A program made the translations under genes and the position numbers. A stretch of 64,000 nt of DNA. Origin: a bacterium. Lineage in GTDB: Bacteria; UBA8248. Shown here in pieces: positions 48,493-61,117 of this stretch. Below the pieces are notes generated by a model that worked only from the letters and a program-made list of their open reading frames with translations, ran no database searches and had not been told where the DNA came from. Each line of letters opens with the position of its first letter. The first letter of the stretch is position 1. The DNA is taken from the NCBI GenBank assembly GCA_965261085.1, contig OZ253442.1, positions 2,240,001-2,304,000 of the forward strand, in the 5' to 3' direction.

Positions 48493-49293
48493 TTAAATAA
48501 TTTTATCTTCACGAAGACGAAGCGCCAGGGCGCCAGCTGCTTCTTCGAGTGATTCGCCTTCGATGAATTCGCAATTTCCGTCAAATACGGGCTTGTAGAA
48601 TTTAGTGACTTCAAAAGTAACCGCCTCTTTTCCGACCGAAGCGGGGTCTATGCCGATGTCCGCCACGCCCCAGACGGGAATTTGCTTGCGCGACGCCATC
48701 AAGATGCCTTTGACCGAGGGCAGACGAGGGGTGTTGATCTCGTTACTGGCGGTGAGCAGGCACGGGGTCGAAACTTCGACGACCTCCACGCCGTCTTCCA
48801 GAGCGCGTTCGCACCGAAGACCCGCATCGGTTTTCTCCACTTTCTGAAGCTGGCTTACGCTGGGAAGCTCAAGCGCTTCGGCGAGGGCGAGGGCAGTGGT
48901 TCCGTAGCTCCAGTCGCTGCTCAGCCTGCCGCAGAGGATGACGTCGAAACCATCCAACATTTGGATGGCGCTCGCCAGAATTCGCGCCGTAGCGAAGGCG
49001 TCGGAACCCTCAAAGGCCTCGTCTTGAAGCAAAATGGCTTCATCGCATCCCATGGCCAGGCATTTTTTCAGACCATCTCTGGCCTTTTGATCGCCCAGCG
49101 TCATGACGGTGATTTTTCCGCCGTGTTCTTCCTTGAGGTTGATGGCCGCCTCGACGGCGTTTTCGCAAAAGCCGTTGATGACGGGCGATACGTTCGCGGG
49201 TGGAATGACATCCATCTTCTCTTCATCGACCTTGAAATCACGGGGAGGAATGTCGGGGTCTTGTACTTGCTTGATGCAGACGATGATATCCAA
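48493..49293 (-). CDS. etfB: electron transfer flavoprotein beta subunit
   Basis: VCIKQV, NAVEAA, LAMGCD and NTPRLPS motifs. Confidence 0.95.
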   Translation of the reverse strand: MDIIVCIKQVQDPDIPPRDFKVDEEKMDVIPPANVSPVINGFCENAVEAAINLKEEHGGKITVMTLGDQKARDGLKKCLAMGCDEAILLQDEAFEGSDAFATARILASAIQMLDGFDVILCGRLSSDWSYGTTALALAEALELPSVSQLQKVEKTDAGLRCERALEDGVEVVEVSTPCLLTASNEINTPRLPSVKGILMASRKQIPVWGVADIGIDPASVGKEAVTFEVTKFYKPVFDGNCEFIEGESLEEAAGALALRLREDKII

Positions 49294-50681: not shown

Positions 50682-50840
50682 AAAAGATAACAATGGCGGA
50701 CGCCCCCGTGCGGGAAGTCCGGGCTCGCAATTCCGCCTCAGACCAGCGAATCATCTTTTAGCCCATTGACCGCTTCGTTCGAGGATGTAGCTTTCCTCAG
50801 GCGAGGTGTGCGGGCGATTTCTCATAAAAGGACTTATATC

Positions 50841-51788
50841 TTGGCGAAAGTAGTGTTGATCGATCCGCTTTACTCGACTCCAGCGTGGAATGTGGCTTCC
50901 GATTGGCTGGGTGCGGAGCACGAAGTCGTCGCTCCGGATGAATACACCCCGGCGGCCATAGAGCCGTTGCTGCCGGAGGCGGAGGGCATACTCACTGTGT
51001 TCCGGCCCGTCTCGCCCGAGATGATGGACATGGCGCCCAATCTCAAGGTGGTGGCCAAGCCGGGCGCAGGCGTGGATAACATCAATGTCGATGCGGCCAA
51101 TGAGCGGGGCGTCATGGTGTGCAACGTCGAGGGCGTACGGGGACGCTCCGTGGCGGAGCACGCTTTTTTCATGGCGCTGTATCTCGCGCGCCACGCCTGG
51201 ATGCGGGATGAGCAGGAAACTTGGGAGCATGTGCCCGCGGTGCAATTGGGCGGCAAATCGCTCGGCATCGTGGGTCTTGGAGATATCGGACGCAGTGCGG
51301 CGCGTATCGGCGATGGTTTCGGTATGGAGCTGCTCATCAACACGCGCACGGAAGATCCTTCCTACGTGCCCGAGGCGAAGCTCGAATTCCTGTCTTTTGA
51401 GGCGCTATTGCCGCGCGTTGATTTCCTGATTCTGTGCATGCCCCTGGCCCCAGAGATGCGGGGCATCATGAACAAGGAAAACATCTTGAAAATGAAACAA
51501 GACGCCATTCTCATCAATGTTTCGAGAGGTCCCGCCGTGGTGAGTGATGATCTTCTGGAGGTGATGCGCGACGGCCACCTCGCAGGTGCTGGGCTTGATG
51601 TCACCGACCCTGAGCCTCTGCCGAAAGACCATGGCTTGTGGGGTTTGGAGAACGTCATCATCAGCCCGCACCATGCTTCCCGGACGCCGGAGACGCAGGT
51701 TGCCGCCATGGAGCGCACGGCGGAGAACATGCGCAAAGCCCTGGCCGGTGAAAAACCCGTCAATATCGTGAACCCAGAAGTCATGTAA
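50841..51788 (+). CDS. D-2-hydroxyacid dehydrogenase family protein
   Basis: GAGVDNI, GLGDIG, INVSRG, LDVTDPEP and SPHHA motifs; start approximate. Confidence 0.9.
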   Translation: MAKVVLIDPLYSTPAWNVASDWLGAEHEVVAPDEYTPAAIEPLLPEAEGILTVFRPVSPEMMDMAPNLKVVAKPGAGVDNINVDAANERGVMVCNVEGVRGRSVAEHAFFMALYLARHAWMRDEQETWEHVPAVQLGGKSLGIVGLGDIGRSAARIGDGFGMELLINTRTEDPSYVPEAKLEFLSFEALLPRVDFLILCMPLAPEMRGIMNKENILKMKQDAILINVSRGPAVVSDDLLEVMRDGHLAGAGLDVTDPEPLPKDHGLWGLENVIISPHHASRTPETQVAAMERTAENMRKALAGEKPVNIVNPEVM

Positions 51789-52915: not shown

Positions 52916-53213
52916 TCGTCGCCGAACATAGAGAACCGCCACGCCATTATACAGGCGCGCTCCCGATCCTCCCGACGGAAAATGCGGGACGGGCCCTTAT
53001 CCTACAGTCGGCAAAACCTCCCTCCTCGCTCGGAATTCACCACATCCAAAAAAAGGGTTGACAGAATGCGCGATGAGCGTTAATTGAAAATAGATGAATG
53101 TTCAGACATGATGGGGTTTTCTTTCTTATTCTGCAAAAAGACATGAACGGGTTGCAACATAGAGAGCAATGCCGAACGCATCATCCCCTATCGCCCTATG
53201 GGAGGATGACATC

Positions 53214-53570
53214 ATGCAGCAATCTTCTGTAAAGAGCCGTTCCTCCGCGTCCGGCGCCGCCGAGATTCTGCGGCATATTTTCGGGGATATCGAGCACGGG
53301 CTCCACTTGCGCTTGTGGGACGGGTCGGCCCTGTCAATAGGACGCGAGGTGCTCCCCGTCACCTTAACGTTTACGTCACTGAATGCCTTCAAGCGCGTTT
53401 TGTTGAATCCCGAGGCGAATACTTTTGCGGAAGCGTATTGTGACGGAGATATCGAAGTCGACGGGGACTTGTTCGAGGCCATGAAGGCGGCCGACAGCTT
53501 CGACACGATTGAACTGACCACAATGCAAAAATTCATGTTCGCCCTGCGTATATGGAAACTGTCCGAATGA
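53214..53570 (+). CDS. stand-alone N-terminal (lipid-binding) domain of a CFA-synthase-like methyltransferase
   Basis: LRLWDGS and FAEAYCDGDIEVDGDL match the N-domain of Cfa-family proteins; GGAGG before ATG 53214. Confidence 0.75.
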   Translation: MQQSSVKSRSSASGAAEILRHIFGDIEHGLHLRLWDGSALSIGREVLPVTLTFTSLNAFKRVLLNPEANTFAEAYCDGDIEVDGDLFEAMKAADSFDTIELTTMQKFMFALRIWKLSE

Positions 53571-54679
53571 GCGCCTGGGATGTTCTCATCGTCGGAGGCG
53601 GCCCGGGGGGCAGCACGGCCGCCTGGGAGTTGGCGAAGCGGGGCCGCCGGGTATTGCTTCTCGATGCGGCCACGTTTCCGCGCGTAAAACTTTGTGCGGG
53701 CTGGGTGACGAAGAAGGTGATGGCCGACCTGGAACTCGAACCGGGTGAATACCCCCATACCATACAGCCGTTTCAGAGCGTGTTCGTGGGCTATGACGAC
53801 AAGCTCCTCGAGACGAAATGGAGCGAGCCTGCGAGCTACGGAATCATCAGGAGCCAGTTCGATACCTATCTTTTGAGACGCGCGCAGGAAGAGGGCGCCG
53901 AAGTGCGCGAGGGCGTCCGCGTCCGGGGTATCGAGAAAACTGCAGGTGGGATGCGCGTGGATATAGGTGATGAAATTATCGAAGTTCCCCTCGTCATCGG
54001 GGCGGGGGGACATACCTGCCCCGTAGCCAGGACTTTCGGCGACGTCTCCTCGAAAGAATCCGTCGTCCTGACGCAAGAGAGTGAAACGAACGTGGGCGCC
54101 GAAAAACTCCGCGCCCTGGCGCCCCACTACGGTTTGCCCGAACTGTTTGCGGAACCCGACTTCAGGGGTTATGCGTGGTATTTTACAAAAGGAGATTTTT
54201 TGAACATCGGCGTGGGGTGCATCGGCAAGCGCCCGAACGTTCATGAGCGCCTCGAGATTCTGCTCGACAGATTCCGCCGAACGGGGAGGTTGCCCGCGAA
54301 GCTCGAACTCACGAAATTCCGGGGCCACGCCTATTCGGTCTATCGCAGGCACGTTCGCCGGCCGGTGGGCGATGGGTTCGCCTTGATCGGCGACGCCGCA
54401 GGACTCGCTAAGGATTTCAGCGGGGAGGGCATCGGCCCCGCCGTCCATAGTGCTAAAATGGCGGCGCGGGCCGCCCATGCGTATCTGGATACGGGGGAGG
54501 GTCTCGTCGAATACGGTGAGGCGCTTTCCGCGAAATACGGAAGCGGCGGGGAAGGGATGCTCGACAAATTGATCGACCGCGTTCCCGACAATGTTCTTTT
54601 CGGCGTGGCCAGGTTTATTTGCGGCAACGCCTGGCTCAGACGCCGATTGGTTCTGGAAGGCGCATTCGGAATAGGTTAA
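53567..54679 (+). CDS. geranylgeranyl-reductase-family FAD-dependent oxidoreductase
   Basis: DVLIVGGGPGG, FPRVKLCAG, RSQFD, GYAWYF and IGDAAGL..FSGEGI motifs; ATGA overlap with the upstream gene. Confidence 0.88.
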   Translation: MSAWDVLIVGGGPGGSTAAWELAKRGRRVLLLDAATFPRVKLCAGWVTKKVMADLELEPGEYPHTIQPFQSVFVGYDDKLLETKWSEPASYGIIRSQFDTYLLRRAQEEGAEVREGVRVRGIEKTAGGMRVDIGDEIIEVPLVIGAGGHTCPVARTFGDVSSKESVVLTQESETNVGAEKLRALAPHYGLPELFAEPDFRGYAWYFTKGDFLNIGVGCIGKRPNVHERLEILLDRFRRTGRLPAKLELTKFRGHAYSVYRRHVRRPVGDGFALIGDAAGLAKDFSGEGIGPAVHSAKMAARAAHAYLDTGEGLVEYGEALSAKYGSGGEGMLDKLIDRVPDNVLFGVARFICGNAWLRRRLVLEGAFGIG

Positions 54680-54700
54680 AACAACAACATTGAGGCGGCT

Positions 54701-55618
54701 ATGGCAAAAGAGAGAACAAAAGAATTCGATGCCGAGGCGATCTCACACCACTACGACATTTCCAACGAGTTTTACGAGCAGTTCCTGTGCGAGAACTTGG
54801 TGTATACGTGCGCCTACTACCGAGAGCCCGACGGCGATCTCGATCAGGCGCAGCGCGACAAGCTGGATCTGGTTTGCAGGAAGCTCAGGCTGGCTCCCGG
54901 AGATGATTACCTCGACATCGGCTGCGGATGGGGTTCACTGGCGATATGGGCGGCGAAGCACTACGGCGTGAACGCCACCGGCGTGACGCTCTCGCGCGAG
55001 CAGGCGAAATGGGGCCAGGAGTGGGTTCGCCGCGAGGGACTGGAAGGCAGATGCGAAATCCATCACATGGATTATCGGGATTTTCCCGAAGAGAGGACTT
55101 TTGCGAAAATTTCCGCCATCGGCATCATTGAGCACGTCGGCATCGCGAATTACCCGAGCTACTTCACTTCGGTGCGAAATCGTCTGCGCGACGGGGGCTT
55201 GTTCCTGAACCACGGGATTACGACGAACAAATTCTGGAAACACACGAGCCAGATCGATTTTCTGCTTCGCAACGTGTTTCCCAACGCCGAGATGGACAAC
55301 ATCTCTCATATTCAGGACGTGATGGAGCGGATGCGGTGGGAGATTCTGGACGTGGAGAACCTGAGGCTCCACTATGCGCGCACGTGCCAGCAATGGTATG
55401 AGAGATTCGAGGAAAACGCCGAAAAGATAAAGAAACTGGTGGGCGAGCGCACCTACCGGGTGTATCGAATCTGGCTGGTTTGTTCGGCGAACGCGTTTTT
55501 CTGCAATTCGCTGGGTCTCTATCAGGTTCTGGCCCAAAAATATGAAATGAAATATGGCCGTGGCGCGCCGACGACTCGCGAGGATATCTATAGAGCGCTT
55601 CTCGGCCTGGACGGCTGA
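54701..55618 (+). CDS. cfa: CFA-synthase-family SAM methyltransferase, catalytic domain only
   Basis: HHYDISNEFY, YTCAYY, LDIGCGWG, EHVG and HYARTC motifs; begins where the N-domain linker ends. Confidence 0.88.
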   Translation: MAKERTKEFDAEAISHHYDISNEFYEQFLCENLVYTCAYYREPDGDLDQAQRDKLDLVCRKLRLAPGDDYLDIGCGWGSLAIWAAKHYGVNATGVTLSREQAKWGQEWVRREGLEGRCEIHHMDYRDFPEERTFAKISAIGIIEHVGIANYPSYFTSVRNRLRDGGLFLNHGITTNKFWKHTSQIDFLLRNVFPNAEMDNISHIQDVMERMRWEILDVENLRLHYARTCQQWYERFEENAEKIKKLVGERTYRVYRIWLVCSANAFFCNSLGLYQVLAQKYEMKYGRGAPTTREDIYRALLGLDG

Positions 55619-55642
55619 GCAGCACCTGCGCATACGCCCCGG

Positions 55643-56635
55643 ATGAACACGTACGCTTCTTCGCTCACCCCTCCTTTCCGCCCGGCCTGGTATTGCCGGG
55701 GGCGTCACCTCCAAAGTATATGGGGATATTTTTTAAGGGCGCGCCCGCGCGTCGTCTGGCGGCGCGAGCGTTGGGATACGCCCGACGGCGATTTTCTGGA
55801 CGTCGATTTCCTGGATGCAGACGAGCCGGATGCTCCGACGCTGCTCGTGCTGCACGGACTGGAAGGCTCTTCGGACTCTCATTACGTGCGCGGGGCGGCA
55901 GTCAGAGCGCGCACGCTGGGCTGGCGGACGCTGGCGCTCAACTACCGCTCTTGCAGCGGCGAGCCGAACCGGAATCCCAAATTTTATCATTGCGGGGAGA
56001 CGGGAGACCTGGGCTTCGTGGCCGGGCGGATTATCGAGCGTTTCGGTGGCCCGCTCGTGCTCGCGGGCTTCTCCCTGGGGGGAAACGTGCTGCTCAAGTG
56101 GCTTGGAGAATGCGCCGATGGCGTGTCCTCTCGCATACGCGGGGCCGCCTGTATTTCTGCGAGCTTACAGCCCGCCGCTTGCGCGAAGGTTCTCGATTCC
56201 GCGCGGGGCTATTTTTACAGGCGGCACCTGCTGGGCAGCATGAAGGAAAAAGCAGAGCGTTTCTCGGAACTGCACCCCGGCCTCATCGACATCGAGGGGG
56301 TGAGGCGCGCGCGGACTTTTCACCATTTCGACCGCCTGGTCATCGCGCCCCTGTATGGTTTCAGTGATGAGCTGGATTACTACAGACAAGCAGACGCTTC
56401 TCCTTATTTGCCCCGAATCCGGGTGAAAACGCTTATCCTCACCGCGGAGGATGACCCCATCGTTCCGCCCCACGCTTTTCCCCACGATCAGGTGGCGGAT
56501 TCGGATTGGCTGAGCGGCATTTTGGTGAAAAAGGGCGGGCACGTGGGTTTCGTGTCGGGCGGAAACCCCCGCTCGCCGGTCTACTGGGCCGAGGAGCGCG
56601 GGTTCGAATTTTTGGAAAATTGCCTAAAAAGCTGA
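55643..56635 (+). CDS. YheT-family alpha/beta hydrolase
   Basis: HLQSIW, DGDFLD, HGLEGS, GFSLGG, EDDP and GGHVGF motifs. Confidence 0.9.
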   Translation: MNTYASSLTPPFRPAWYCRGRHLQSIWGYFLRARPRVVWRRERWDTPDGDFLDVDFLDADEPDAPTLLVLHGLEGSSDSHYVRGAAVRARTLGWRTLALNYRSCSGEPNRNPKFYHCGETGDLGFVAGRIIERFGGPLVLAGFSLGGNVLLKWLGECADGVSSRIRGAACISASLQPAACAKVLDSARGYFYRRHLLGSMKEKAERFSELHPGLIDIEGVRRARTFHHFDRLVIAPLYGFSDELDYYRQADASPYLPRIRVKTLILTAEDDPIVPPHAFPHDQVADSDWLSGILVKKGGHVGFVSGGNPRSPVYWAEERGFEFLENCLKS

Positions 56636-58518: not shown

Positions 58519-59508
58519 ATGCCGGATAAGGCGAAAGTCGTCCTGACCGATTACGTCTGGGATTCTTTGGACGTGGAGAACGAGATTTTGGGAGATCTGG
58601 CCGATATCGTCGCCATGCAGACGAAGACGCCGGCGGAATTTCTCGCAGAAGCCGCCGATTGCGACGCGGTGCTCAACACCTACGCCGGCCCCATCACGCG
58701 AGAGGACATGGCGGGGATGCCGCGTTGCAAGATCATCGCGCGCTACGGCATCGGGGTGGACACCATCGATCTGGACGCCGCCACGGAGGCGGGCATCATC
58801 GTCACGAACAACCCCACCTACTGCATCGAGGAAGTCGCCGAGCACACGATGGCGCTCCTGCTCGCATCGGCGAGAAAGGTGGCCTTCTACGATAGACAGG
58901 TGCGCGCGGGCGAGTGGGCGGTGCCGCCGGGCAAGCCGATGTTCCGCCTCGTGGGCGCCACGCTGGGGCTGGTGGGCTTCGGCAACATCGCCCGCATGGT
59001 GGCCGTTCGCGCCGCTTCGTTCGGGATGAGGGTGCTCTTCAGCGACCCCTTCGTGGAGCAGGGCCAGTTCGATGCGCCCGGGGAAAAGATGGAACTGCCC
59101 GAGATGTTCGCCGAATCGGATTTCGTCTCCATCCATCCGCCGCTCATCCCGCAGACGCGCGGGATGATGAACGACGAGGCGTTCGCGCAGATGAAGAACA
59201 CCGCCGTCATCGTCAACTGCTCAAGGGGTCCGATTATCGACACGGACGCCCTGGTGCGCGCGCTCGATTCAGGCGAAATCGCAGGCTGCGCCCTCGATAC
59301 GACCGACCCCGAACCCCTGCCCGATCCGCACCCCCTGCGGGGGCGTGAGAACGTCATCATCAACCCCCACGCGGCCTGGTATAGCGAAGAATCCATGGTT
59401 GGCCTCCAGCAAGGGGCGCCCAACGAAGTCAAGCGCATACTTTCGGGCGACTGGCCCGTGAATGTGGTCAACAGGGCCGTAAAGGACAACAACCGCGCGG
59501 GTCTGTAG
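58519..59508 (+). CDS. CtBP-like D-2-hydroxyacid dehydrogenase
   Basis: RYGIGVDTID, YCIEEVAEH, GFGNI and NPHAAWYSEES motifs. Confidence 0.92.
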   Translation: MPDKAKVVLTDYVWDSLDVENEILGDLADIVAMQTKTPAEFLAEAADCDAVLNTYAGPITREDMAGMPRCKIIARYGIGVDTIDLDAATEAGIIVTNNPTYCIEEVAEHTMALLLASARKVAFYDRQVRAGEWAVPPGKPMFRLVGATLGLVGFGNIARMVAVRAASFGMRVLFSDPFVEQGQFDAPGEKMELPEMFAESDFVSIHPPLIPQTRGMMNDEAFAQMKNTAVIVNCSRGPIIDTDALVRALDSGEIAGCALDTTDPEPLPDPHPLRGRENVIINPHAAWYSEESMVGLQQGAPNEVKRILSGDWPVNVVNRAVKDNNRAGL

Positions 59509-59526: not shown

Positions 59527-61048
59527 GGGGTTGTTGAATAACCCGGTTTCGGGAGCGGGCGGTATGGAGGGTCACGCGGCGGCGGACAGGAAGCCCGCGC
59601 AGCTTGCGAGGCCGCGATGGACGCACAGAGGCTCTTCCCGGGCCGACCAGGCCCTCCAGAGGGCGAATAACCTTGCAGCAAGTGCGGCGGAGAGCCGCTT
59701 GAGGTTGATCGCCGCCGCCGTCAGGTAGGACTGTATCTTCATGTTCTCAAGACCGCGCCGCACCGCGCGCGCAAGCCCGTGCCAGGTCTTCGCCTCGCCG
59801 TGGTAGCCCTCCGAGCGCCACATATGACGCCGGTACATCCGCCGCTCCTCCTCCCTCCATCGCGCATGGCGCCGGCGCGCGCGCAACAGCGCCGGATACG
59901 CATGCGGAACCAACACCACCTTGCTCGACCACGCCTTCGGCAGGCAATCCTCGCGAAGCGCGCAGCCCGCGCAATCACGGGTCTTCGAACGATAATAACG
60001 CCCCCCCTTTGCGGGCCGACGGGGGCTCAGTATCTTGCCGCGCGGACACTTCACGATGTCGTGCCGCGCGTCGTAGCGGAACAGGCGCAACGGAACACGG
60101 CTCTGCGAGGGTTCCCTCTTCGCCGGAATGAGCGCGGCCACACCCCGGCGCTCCAGGGCCGCGTAGACCTTCGAGTAGGCGTAGCCAGAGTCCGCCGTCA
60201 CCATCGCGGGCGCGCGCCCCGATACCTCGCATACCGCTTCCACCTGCGATTCGAGCACCTCACGCTCGTTCACCGTACCCTCCGTCACCGATACGTCGAG
60301 CACCACCCCGCGCGTGTCGTCCACCACAGCGTGCTGCTTGTAGCTCGGCTCGAATCCCCCGCCCGTTCTCGCCAGCCGCGCGTCCGGGTCCGTCCGGCTC
60401 ACCTTCCCGGAACCCCCGCCACGGCGGCCTCCTCCACCCTTCTTCCCGGCCTCCTCCTCGACGGGGTTCTCCGCTATCACCTCGTCCACGTGACGCTCCA
60501 CCAGACTCTCCCAACTCACGTCCGCGCGGATCAATGAGGCGTCCACGTGCACGACTTCGGCCTTGGCCACCTTCGCATCCAGGCACGCACGGACCGTGCG
60601 GCGGAATATCTCCCGGAACCGGGCCTCCCCCCAGCGCTGCCGTATCCGCGTCAGGCTCGAATGATCCGGCAGCCGATCCTCCAGCCCGTAACCGATGAAC
60701 CACCGGATCGCGATGTTCACCTGCGCCTCGCGCATCAACCGACGGTCGTGCACGAACCCCAGCAGAAGGCCCGCCAACATCAACCGAACCGCCACTTCGG
60801 GGTCGATCCCAGGACGGCCGTTGTCCGCGCAATAACAATCCGCCACTTCCTCGCGCAGCCAACTCAGGTCCAGAACGCGGTTCACGCGGGCCAATATGTG
60901 ATCCTCGGGAATCAACCTCTCCAGCGAACCGGTGATGAACAAATCCATCTGGGCGCGGTTCTTGCGTCCCAACATCGCGGATATTCCCTTCTCGGGCGCG
61001 TAATATCCATACATCCAAGCATAGAGTCAGGGGTTTTTCAACAACCCC
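59527..61048 (-). mobile_element. IS1182-family insertion sequence (1522 bp)
   Basis: 18-bp terminal inverted repeats GGGGTTGTTGAATAACCC / GGGTTTTTCAACAACCCC (1 mismatch) around a transposase. Confidence 0.9.
59572..60975 (-). CDS. IS1182-family DDE transposase
   Basis: GRPGIDP, PDHSSLTR, HVDAS, ADSGY, CPRG..C..C..C and EAKTWHGL motifs. Confidence 0.92.
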   Translation of the reverse strand: MLGRKNRAQMDLFITGSLERLIPEDHILARVNRVLDLSWLREEVADCYCADNGRPGIDPEVAVRLMLAGLLLGFVHDRRLMREAQVNIAIRWFIGYGLEDRLPDHSSLTRIRQRWGEARFREIFRRTVRACLDAKVAKAEVVHVDASLIRADVSWESLVERHVDEVIAENPVEEEAGKKGGGGRRGGGSGKVSRTDPDARLARTGGGFEPSYKQHAVVDDTRGVVLDVSVTEGTVNEREVLESQVEAVCEVSGRAPAMVTADSGYAYSKVYAALERRGVAALIPAKREPSQSRVPLRLFRYDARHDIVKCPRGKILSPRRPAKGGRYYRSKTRDCAGCALREDCLPKAWSSKVVLVPHAYPALLRARRRHARWREEERRMYRRHMWRSEGYHGEAKTWHGLARAVRRGLENMKIQSYLTAAAINLKRLSAALAARLFALWRAWSAREEPLCVHRGLASCAGFLSAAA

Positions 61049-61117
61049 GATGAAGGAGCGTTTGCCGCGACCGATGAAGGAGCGTTTGCCGCGACCGATG
61101 AAGGAGCGTTTGCCGCG
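61049..61117 (+). repeat. 24-bp tandem repeat, about 3 copies
   Basis: GATGAAGGAGCGTTTGCCGCGACC twice plus a 21-bp third copy, abutting the IS end. Confidence 0.9.

Follow-up and report, generated by a model that had tools for sequence, protein, structure and literature searches.

In a Nitrospinota genome, three adjacent genes probably encode a variant of the tmp-type route to mid-chain methyl-branched fatty acids, in which the two domains of a Cfa-family methylase are separate proteins and the gene for a flavoprotein of the geranylgeranyl reductase (GGR) family stands between them. This order, N-domain, GGR, catalytic domain (N > GGR > C), recurs under the labels of many phyla. We found no description of the three-gene split layout in the literature; it is a widespread, undescribed form of a published pathway. 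The locus lies in a stretch of 64,000 nucleotides (assembly GCA_965261085.1, contig OZ253442.1, positions 2,240,001 to 2,304,000), which we call the window.

Results

A Cfa-family methylase split around a flavoprotein gene

The ORF list of the window contains four close-packed + strand reading frames, which encode, in order, a Cfa N-domain, a GGR-family protein, a Cfa catalytic domain (CMAS) and a YheT-like hydrolase:

53200-53206, + strand: Shine-Dalgarno-like GGGAGGA, read from the sequence, 8 nt upstream of the N-domain ATG at 53214
53214-53570, + strand: free Cfa N-domain (DUF7884), 118 aa, from an internal ATG of ORF1 (53169-53570, 133 aa); Pfam DUF7884 32.4 bits against a cut-off of 27
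53567-54679, + strand: GGR-family FAD protein, TmpA-like, presumed methylene reductase, 370 aa, from an internal ATG of ORF2 (53552-54679, 375 aa); TIGR02032 165.3 bits against a cut-off of 158.8
54701-55618, + strand: Cfa catalytic domain (CMAS, TmpB-like C-half), ORF3, 305 aa; Pfam CMAS 291.6 bits
55643-56635, + strand: YheT-like alpha/beta hydrolase, ORF4, 330 aa; PRK10985 217.6 bits, under the cut-off of 267; Abhydrolase_1 45.5 bits

The 118-aa start of the N-domain is consistent with its congeners, and the GGR gene may start at 53552 instead of 53567. As the ATG at 53567 lies within GAATGA (53565-53570), the GGR start overlaps the TGA stop of the N-domain gene. The GGR and CMAS genes are 21 nt apart, and GAGG precedes the ATG at 54701; the CMAS and hydrolase genes are 24 nt apart, and a clear Shine-Dalgarno sequence is absent from this second gap. 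Reading frames, junctions and domains therefore bear out the first-pass annotation in its description of four packed + strand genes, with a ribosome-binding site of its own for the N-domain, an ATGA overlap and a catalytic domain that begins at the linker. The two Cfa domains are encoded in different frames with a 1113-nt gene in between, and a repeat search around this GGR gene found short chance matches and no terminal repeats, in keeping with the earlier statement that mobile-element ends are absent. In the whole 4.27-Mb genome the CMAS gene is the sole strong match of its kind (291.5 bits; the three others do not exceed 27 bits), and the N-domain gene gives the only DUF7884 match. RNA-library contigs span both the N/GGR and the GGR/CMAS junctions, which is a weak hint only.

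The split layout recurs across phyla

A survey of 80 related loci, retrieved with an alignment of the GGR protein, returned the order N > GGR > C on one strand in 60, under at least eight phylum labels. These comprise Nitrospinota (14 loci), Binatia (10), 'delta proteobacteria' (7), Methylomirabilota/Rokubacteria (4) and Tectomicrobia, Thermodesulfobacteriota, Planctomycetota and Proteobacteria (1 each), together with 21 unlabelled loci. Six further loci are interrupted by contig ends in a way compatible with this order, three of the 80 have the order N > C > GGR, and in ten a GGR relative has no neighbouring CMAS gene, five of these relatives being 54-57% identical to the window protein. The nearest named relatives among the loci retrieved are from Thiohalorhabdus, with GGR proteins 47-48% identical. 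Junctions are tight throughout the 60 loci: the stop of the N-domain gene and the start of the GGR gene share a 4-nt overlap in 33, and their spacing is within 30 nt in 59. In the flanks of the surveyed loci no further gene, such as an oxygenase, is kept across phyla.

Two natural fusion proteins join the flavoprotein to the methylase. One (P0391, 694 aa) is a CMAS-GGR fusion in which an N-domain is not detectable, while the other (P0392, 752 aa) consists of GGR, a weak N-domain match and then CMAS. Genes are interrupted in a few loci, by an in-frame stop in GGR (L037, L056) or by an N-domain in two frames (L066). Estimates of dN/dS are 0.14-0.32 for the N-domain, 0.08-0.15 for GGR and 0.06-0.15 for CMAS, and these sequence comparisons indicate that all three genes are under purifying selection. 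The first-pass annotation had considered that the arrangement might be unique to this assembly, with relaxed selection on the halves; instead it is found in 60 of 80 loci, at dN/dS values between 0.06 and 0.32.

The best 120 relatives of the CMAS protein are all 216-316 aa long, although lengths up to 534 aa were admitted in the search. In a CMAS tree a branch with support 96/98 separates all 29 split catalytic domains from the remaining sequences, and by this phylogeny they are a single clade. The other GGR-linked methylases (L095, P0392 and P0391) group with E. coli Cfa, off the split clade, so the coupling of GGR to a methylase may have arisen more than once.

Both halves of the methylase look intact

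The CMAS protein spans positions 97-393 of the CfaB model and matches residues 110-378 of Aquifex Cfa (7qos, 4e-59), and its residue 1 aligns with about residue 103 of E. coli Cfa, in the interdomain linker. The equivalents of E. coli Cfa C139, E239, H266, I268 and Y317 are kept at all five positions of the bicarbonate site, of which C139 and I268 are positions that we take to belong to it. E239, H266 and Y317 are named as ligands (PMC11387697). The N-domain protein covers positions 5-81 of the NCBIfam CfaB model and aligns to residues 41-82 of 7qos (E 0.0075). Its AlphaFold 2 model (pLDDT 91.6) has Cfa structures as the best Foldseek matches (7qos, E 2e-4; 5z9o), with SCP2 proteins also among the top, as weak matches (4jgx, E 1.7e-3, TM 0.36; UbiJ-SCP2 6h6p, E 1.2e-2, TM 0.35), and the fold is accordingly predicted to be SCP2-like and lipid-binding. 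The most conserved N-domain motif, residues 71-85, aligns to L57-W68 of E. coli Cfa, the part that faces the catalytic domain in that enzyme, and the alignment indicates that the N-domain retains a motif for docking on the catalytic domain. Domains, catalytic residues and the dN/dS values of the two genes all support the earlier view that both halves look intact.

Compared with the known Cfa structures (E. coli 6BQC, Aquifex 7QOS, Lactobacillus 5Z9O), the N (~20-100) and C (~103-378) proteins jointly span the full chain, and the SAM-binding residues are likewise kept. Cfa, however, is a single polypeptide, whereas here there are two, with a reductase partner and with scores under the NCBIfam Cfa and CfaB cut-offs: the CMAS protein reaches 252.5 against 400 for PRK11705 and 321.8 against 650 for CfaB (NF040703), for which the N-domain protein scores 24.1 bits. 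The product of the window cassette is probably not a cyclopropane.

In a reading that is compatible with the tmp-type pathway but that we consider unlikely, the free N-domain acts as a lipid-presenting subunit shared by the two enzymes: it extracts or holds the acyl chain, delivering it to the methylase first and to the GGR-type reductase afterwards. The N-domain would then be kept separate, and encoded directly before the reductase, because it serves both enzymes. E. coli Cfa suffers a large loss of activity when its domains are made as separate proteins (PMC11387697), and since splitting harms that enzyme, the retention of the split in two gene orders (60 and 3 loci), with the 29 split catalytic domains in one clade, suggests a compensating benefit. 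Translational coupling of the N-domain gene to the GGR gene, with the 4-nt overlap seen in over half of the N > GGR > C loci, is in line with this reading, as is the weak resemblance of the N-domain model to SCP2 carriers including UbiJ-SCP2. UbiJ is an SCP2 protein that acts in ubiquinone synthesis. However, among 30 longer N-domain relatives that we scanned, the domain is fused to CMAS in 22 and to an FAD domain in none; its top-conserved motif is the side facing the catalytic domain in Cfa; the P0391 fusion does without a detectable N-domain; the SCP2 matches are weak; and plain operon history also explains the tight N/GGR order. In a fuller and similarly speculative form, the N-domain would have been freed as an SCP2-like lipid chaperone for two enzymes in turn, lifting the unsaturated chain from the bilayer for the methylase and then presenting the exomethylene intermediate to the reductase, within a three-protein metabolon at the membrane surface comparable to UbiJ and the Ubi enzymes, and most of the 10-methyl-C16-type 'biomarker' lipids of many uncultured phyla would then stem from the cassette.

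The flavoprotein resembles TmpA and archaeal GGRs

Our preferred reading, the tmp-type pathway, rests on a comparison with the tmpBA ("ten-methyl palmitate") operon of Desulfobacter, Desulfobacula, Marinobacter hydrocarbonoclasticus and Thiohalospira halophila, in which a Cfa-like methylase lies beside a flavoprotein 'similar to archaeal geranylgeranyl reductases' (PMC7791843). This operon contradicts the assertion of the first-pass annotation that Cfa-family methylases have no flavoprotein partners of the GGR family. TmpB forms 10-methylene fatty acids and TmpA is the presumed methylene reductase; in E. coli, four of five tmp operons gave 10-methylenepalmitate and none of the five a 10-methyl product, so that TmpA activity was never demonstrated, and its mechanism is called unknown (PMC7791843, Fig. 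1 legend for the mechanism). Both systems combine, in one operon, a Cfa-family methylase that has the bicarbonate-site residues with an adjoining GGR-like flavoprotein, and they share a presumed chemistry of methylenation of an unsaturated acyl chain followed by reduction to a methyl branch. A comparison by eye finds TmpA motifs in common with the window protein (the conserved Cys region, G-Y-x-W and G-D-A-A-G-L). The published TmpB proteins, in contrast, are all in one piece (N + C), in the order tmpB then tmpA, whereas the window encodes the methylase as two separate proteins, one on each side of the reductase gene, and the printed Desulfobacter TmpA has ~310 aa against 370 aa here. BfaB and BfaA of actinomycetes, which make 10-methylstearate (tuberculostearic acid), take the same two steps, 10-methylene formation by a Cfa-like methylase and reduction by a flavoprotein; BfaB is also in one piece, but BfaA is of the FAD oxidase type while the partner here is GGR-family, and BfaA and TmpA have no meaningful homology (PMC7791843). 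The methylenation and GGR-type reduction put forward in the first-pass annotation are therefore plausible as chemistry, yet they do not amount to a new system, because the same reading is already in print for tmpBA (PMC7791843).

The window flavoprotein passes TIGR02032, is also matched by MenJ-type models and aligns to Thermoplasma 3oz2 (2.5e-16); in this alignment the KLCAGW Cys and the Y-x-W-x-F motif are in register, and in Y-x-W-x-F-P, T replaces P. The conserved Cys and Y-x-W-x-F-P are named motifs of the GGR family. In Foldseek, its AlphaFold 2 model (pLDDT 92.1) matches 3oz2 at TM 0.77 and Sulfolobus GGR 3ATQ at TM 0.69. The likeness to these archaeal GGRs extends over the fold, the FAD-binding motif, the Cys and Y-x-W-x-F, but sequence identity is only ~21-22%, the window protein has a conserved C-terminal helical extension (residues ~310-370), and its genomic partner is a fatty-acid methylase instead of isoprenoid lipid genes. 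This context argues for a methylene-acyl over an isoprenoid substrate.

That the N and C proteins are an ordinary cyclopropane synthase, merely split, beside an unrelated GGR protein that saturates an isoprenoid, polyprenol or quinone side chain, seems improbable to us. The CMAS sequence does not distinguish between methylene formation and cyclopropane synthesis, all cyclopropane-synthase bicarbonate-site residues being present and identical to those of E. coli Cfa at the five positions, and the gene is the only one of its kind in the genome. GGR proteins, moreover, are known as isoprenoid reductases (the TIGR02032 and MenJ-type matches), GGR relatives occur without CMAS in ten loci, and TmpA activity, as noted, was never demonstrated. 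Against this, the reductase lies between the halves in three quarters of the surveyed loci and under at least eight phylum labels, while other neighbours are not kept; two natural proteins fuse GGR and CMAS; and the published unsplit relatives yield an exomethylene product, not a cyclopropane. Less probable still, to the point of being remote, is a different product, such as a 10MeC16:1-like methyl-branched unsaturated acid or a furan-fatty-acid-type intermediate, with the GGR protein as an isomerase or desaturase. Cfa-family methylases do supply such pathways (PMC7380195), 10MeC16:1delta7 occurs with 10MeC16:0 in Ca. Methylomirabilis (PMC6581649) and the mechanism of TmpA is open in print (PMC7791843), but the window protein retains two features of reducing GGRs, the conserved Cys and Y-x-W-x-F, and across phyla the cassette has no extra conserved gene, for example an oxygenase, beside it.

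The hydrolase is most likely a lineage-specific neighbour

The YheT-like hydrolase, for which no PDB sequence match was found, had been counted as part of the system. Its gene follows the CMAS gene closely on the same strand, one RNA-library contig maps on it, and it adjoins the cassette in 29 of the 80 loci, labelled exclusively Nitrospinota, Tectomicrobia or not at all, and lies no more than 31 nt away in 19 of 27. However, it is never a neighbour in the N > GGR > C loci that bear another phylum label (24 in all), its distance rises to 258-599 nt in seven loci, a clear ribosome-binding site before it is absent, and further downstream genes are conserved in the same loci; because of this last point, its adjacency resembles ordinary local synteny. 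The hydrolase is most likely a lineage-specific neighbour whose membership of the system is doubtful, and we hold out little prospect that it is a functional fourth component that remodels or releases modified acyl chains.

Discussion

A proposed pathway

In the pathway that we favour, the SCP2-like N-domain protein would dock non-covalently on the catalytic protein, using the motif at which the N- and C-domains of one-piece Cfa meet, and the pair would bind membrane phospholipid. On a cis double bond of an acyl chain, for which delta-9 16:1 is the likeliest candidate, the pair would then place the methyl carbon of S-adenosylmethionine, so that an exomethylene (10-methylene) chain results. The GGR-family flavoprotein encoded between the halves would turn the branched C=C into a methyl branch by reduction. 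The methylenation step, published for unsplit relatives only, is assigned by analogy, and we infer the reduction by a GGR-type protein, the branch position and the non-covalent assembly. Substrate could come from enzymes of the same genome, which contains a match to a fatty-acid desaturase (75 bits) and others of the FabA/FabZ type. The dominating lipids given for cultured Nitrospina in PMC3660363 (14:0, 16:1 cis-9, 16:0) include 16:1 cis-9, and that list names no methyl-branched acid. As a separate observation, Methylomirabilota/Rokubacteria labels occur on four N > GGR > C loci, and 10MeC16:0 is termed typical of Ca. Methylomirabilis (PMC6581649).

Significance

Saturated methyl-branched acids are sought as lubricant feedstocks, the goal that PMC7791843 pursued. 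The cassette offers a natural test of whether a GGR-type flavoprotein reduces an exomethylene acyl chain, and of a Cfa-type enzyme with a separate lipid-binding domain, an arrangement that cripples the E. coli enzyme. In the field, 10MeC16:0 serves as a marker for sulfate reducers and 11MeC16:0 for Nitrospira (PMC6487957), while the GGR-linked route has published genes only in a small number of cultured proteobacteria. Should the cassette produce such lipids, this capacity would reach Nitrospinota, Binatia, Rokubacteria/Methylomirabilota, Tectomicrobia, Planctomycetota and others, and the taxonomic value of mid-chain methyl-branched markers would be weakened.

Gene content of the locus

Four tightly packed genes on the + strand, spanning 53214-56635, comprise a cassette of three genes, encoding a free Cfa N-domain (N), a geranylgeranyl-reductase-family flavoprotein (GGR) and a Cfa catalytic domain (CMAS; C), followed by a hydrolase gene.

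Genes of the locus (window coordinates, strand, product)
53214-53570, +, N-domain gene: 118 aa, with GGGAGGA upstream; Pfam DUF7884 match, plus the first ~80 positions of CfaB, an NCBIfam model
53567-54679, +, GGR-family flavoprotein gene: 370 aa; TIGR02032 at 165.3 bits, against a curated cut-off of 158.8
54701-55618, +, catalytic-domain gene: 305 aa; complete CMAS domain at 291.6 bits, CfaB model positions 97-393
55643-56635, +, alpha/beta hydrolase gene: 330 aa; nearest to YheT/PRK10985, with a score under the model cut-off

The ATG of the GGR gene overlaps the TGA stop of the N-domain gene. When aligned with solved Cfa structures, the N-domain protein covers residues ~20-100 and the catalytic-domain protein residues ~103-378, the first residue of the latter aligning at about position 103 of E. 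coli Cfa, inside the linker. The catalytic-domain protein retains the equivalents of E. coli Cfa C139, E239, H266, I268 and Y317. Neither a second real CMAS gene nor a second DUF7884 is present in the 4.27-Mb single-contig genome, and no repeats able to serve as mobile-element ends were found around the GGR gene, in agreement with the first-pass annotation, which had reported none. Given the open reading frames, domain matches, linker start and junctions, the four-gene observation made there is therefore correct in each detail checked.

Two metatranscriptome runs and two presumed RNA runs yielded short contigs that map to parts of all four genes and span both the N/GGR and GGR/C junctions. As this evidence consists of contigs, from libraries that may contain DNA and in which uncovered stretches carry no meaning, it gives a weak hint of cassette expression. 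Scans for promoters (1 promoter-like site vs 1.6 expected) and terminators (5 terminator-like sites vs 4.6 expected) did not rise above chance. In the surroundings, two D-isomer-specific 2-hydroxyacid dehydrogenase genes flank the cassette on both sides (50766-51788 and 58519-59508, + strand), and a gene with an electron-transfer-flavoprotein (ETF) domain lies 4 kb upstream (48493-49293, - strand). A 480-aa DDE transposase (DUF772, DDE_Tnp_1_6, DDE_Tnp_1) is encoded at 59572-61014 on the - strand, in a region of raised G+C (0.65-0.68 vs ~0.58-0.62 in its surroundings); just past it, at 61047-61117, a 24-nt unit occurs in three identical copies.

The gene order is conserved across phyla

Relatives of the GGR protein were sought by alignment in one-genome-per-species contigs; the best 80 of 214 related places were fetched, and the four proteins located in each.

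Gene order at the best 80 of 214 related loci
N > GGR > C, single strand: 60/80
N > GGR, contig end downstream: 2/80
GGR > C, contig end upstream: 4/80
N > C > GGR, three genes: 3/80 (two Thiohalorhabdus, one gammaproteobacterial)
GGR, then a one-piece 391-aa Cfa: 1/80
GGR relative on its own: 10/80

The 60 loci with the order N > GGR > C carry the labels Nitrospinota (14), Binatia (10), 'delta proteobacteria' (7), Methylomirabilota/Rokubacteria (4), and Tectomicrobia, Thermodesulfobacteriota, Planctomycetota and Proteobacteria (1 each), with 21 unlabelled. Loci whose GGR protein is 88-96% identical to that of the window are labelled Nitrospinota or Nitrospinaceae. Within the window's phylum, a GGR ortholog (E <= 1e-80) was found in 41 of 51 sampled genomes; by family, this query detected it in 40 of the 41 that belong to the same family as the window and in none of the 9 drawn from three other families.

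Spacing is tight in these 60 loci: the N-domain stop and GGR start overlap by 4 nt in 33 and lie <=30 nt apart in 59, one locus (L075) having its N gene 1981 nt upstream, and the GGR-to-C spacing ranges from -142 to 53 nt. Comparisons with congeners gave dN/dS values of 0.14-0.32 for the N-domain (nine congeners), 0.08-0.15 for GGR (eight) and 0.06-0.15 for the catalytic domain (seven). The arrangement is thus neither unique to this assembly nor under relaxed selection, with the order present in 60 of 80 loci and dN/dS at 0.06-0.32 throughout; from this conservation of order and low dN/dS it follows that the split is ancient, occurs widely and evolves under purifying selection.

Interrupted copies occur in three loci: the GGR gene contains an in-frame stop in L037 (5766-5768) and L056 (5598-5600), and the N-domain of L066 (4655-4946) is spread over two frames. 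Pseudogenization, recoding or errors of assembly could account for these. G024 is listed with '1 TAG'. Five loci labelled 'delta' or Thermodesulfobacteriota (L061, L062, L065, L067 and L071) encode a GGR protein that shares 54-57% identity with the window's and have neither CMAS nor N-domain nearby; in L061 (2233-9142), genes for an enoyl-CoA hydratase and for a luciferase-like monooxygenase are among the neighbours. The '489-aa open frames' 5' of congener GGR genes, considered as N-GGR fusions, are just stop-free extensions, with the N-domain in a different frame. The 970-aa open CMAS frame of a Rokubacteria locus (L083, 6077-8986) holds CMAS alone by Pfam, in its first ~275 residues, and is probably a stop-free run of high G+C rather than a fusion.

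The hydrolase had been put forward as part of the system, with a role in lipid remodelling. Among the best 80 of 214 loci it adjoins the cassette in 29, all labelled Nitrospinota, Tectomicrobia or unlabelled, and it is missing after the cassette in all 24 N > GGR > C loci that bear other phylum labels. Its distance from the cassette ranges between an overlap and some 600 nt, and further downstream genes are kept over the same loci. These observations argue against membership, and the hydrolase is probably a lineage-specific neighbour of uncertain relevance rather than part of the system. No PDB sequence relative of the hydrolase was found at E <= 0.001. A neighbour search of related loci, in which many clusters were overlapping spurious ORFs, found no flanking genes besides the cassette common across phyla.

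The split is a property of one clade

In a search of proteins <=534 aa, the 120 top-ranking relatives of the catalytic-domain protein are 58-99% identical to it and all 216-316 aa long. A maximum-likelihood tree was built from 40 CMAS domains; it is unrooted and has several long outgroup rows. In it, the 29 split-locus rows form one side of a branch (support 96/98, and 95% of 200 bootstrap trees), and 6 of 7 one-piece Cfa proteins recovered by the N-domain search adjoin them. The split is a property of one clade. A 2024 survey of the CFAS family takes members of 280-320 aa, ~10% of the family and mostly without an N-domain, to be CmaA-like, and its section 10 makes no mention of separate N-domain genes (PMC11387697).

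Searched against 1.84 billion representatives, the N-domain matched 162 clusters at E <= 0.001, and 94 of the best 150 of these are <=160 aa; the ESM Atlas likewise holds clusters of stand-alone 'DUF7884 domain-containing protein' (107-118 aa) from Nitrospinota, Methylomirabilota and Pseudomonadota. The structural model (pLDDT 91.6) matches Cfa-structure N-domains best, then, weakly, SCP2 lipid carriers including UbiJ-SCP2. When 30 of the 56 relatives >160 aa were scanned, 22 had CMAS as second domain and none a flavoprotein or GGR domain. Since the second domain is CMAS in 22 of these relatives and a flavoprotein in none, and since the best-conserved stretch of the N-domain, residues 71-85, corresponds in alignment to L57-W68 of E. 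coli Cfa, we think that the free N-domain would still dock on the catalytic-domain protein. As E. coli Cfa is reported to lose activity on splitting (PMC11387697, in the portion available), the split clade must bind its halves more tightly or employ the free N-domain differently. That the N-domain would serve first the methylase and then the reductase in turn is a bolder and less probable reading.

Coupling of a GGR-type flavoprotein to the methylase

The GGR model (pLDDT 92.1) best matches the Thermoplasma GGR-like structure 3oz2 (TM 0.77), followed by Sulfolobus GGR. In alignment with 3oz2 it retains the flavin-adjacent Cys and the Y-x-W-x-F motif, and its C-terminal helical extension (residues ~310-370) is conserved within the clade. 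Two related proteins join the activities in a single chain: P0391 (694 aa) has CMAS followed by a GGR-type domain, and in P0392 (752 aa) a GGR-type domain comes first and CMAS last, separated by a region that weakly matches the N-domain. Both share 36% identity with the window's GGR protein over the GGR part. These fusions, which occur in both domain orders, parallel in nature the engineered BfaA-B fusion of PMC7791843. In the CMAS tree, both fusions and the unsplit GGR-linked locus L095 cluster with E. coli Cfa and lie apart from the split clade, which could reflect more than one origin of GGR-methylase coupling or an exchange of genes. The conserved order and natural fusions are evidence that reductase and methylase act together.

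The first-pass annotation knew of no GGR-family partner for Cfa-like methylases, a claim contradicted by the 'ten-methyl palmitate' operon tmpBA of Desulfobacter, Desulfobacula, Marinobacter hydrocarbonoclasticus and Thiohalospira halophila, in which TmpB is a Cfa homolog and TmpA a GGR-like flavoprotein (PMC7791843). According to the parts of that report available to us, four of five tmpBA operons formed 10-methylenepalmitate in E. coli and none formed 10-methylpalmitate; because of the latter, the reductase role of TmpA is still assumed. By eye, the Marinobacter and Thiohalospira TmpA and the window's GGR have motifs in common at the conserved Cys, G-Y-x-W and G-D-A-A-G-L. The printed TmpB sequences, however, are all in one piece and in the order B then A, whereas in the window the methylase is split around the GGR gene. 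On later work on TmpA-type reductases, PMC7791843 alone was relevant in the literature searched, with subscription journals outside its coverage.

Candidate substrate and product

Searches of the genome gave a match to a fatty-acid desaturase family and others of FabA/FabZ type. The lipids dominating in a Nitrospina strain, which may or may not carry the cassette, are 14:0, 16:1 cis-9 and 16:0, with no methyl-branched acid in the portion of the report available (PMC3660363); 16:1 cis-9 is the delta-9 C16 substrate that published TmpB is reported to favour (PMC7791843). No report of methyl-branched acids in Nitrospina was found in the literature searched (subscription journals outside coverage). 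For Ca. Methylomirabilis, 10MeC16:0 and 10MeC16:1 are called typical (PMC6581649, as available), which fits the four cassette loci labelled Methylomirabilota/Rokubacteria.

Taken together, the observation of the first-pass annotation is confirmed and its interpretation is correct in part: the suggested methylenation followed by GGR-type reduction is the chemistry of the published tmp-type proposal (PMC7791843, in the parts available) and does not amount to a new system. The three-gene split layout, undescribed in the literature searched, which left subscription journals outside its coverage, is what is new: a Cfa-type methylase that occurs in nature as two proteins, encoded on either side of the reductase gene, in a layout that many phyla retain.
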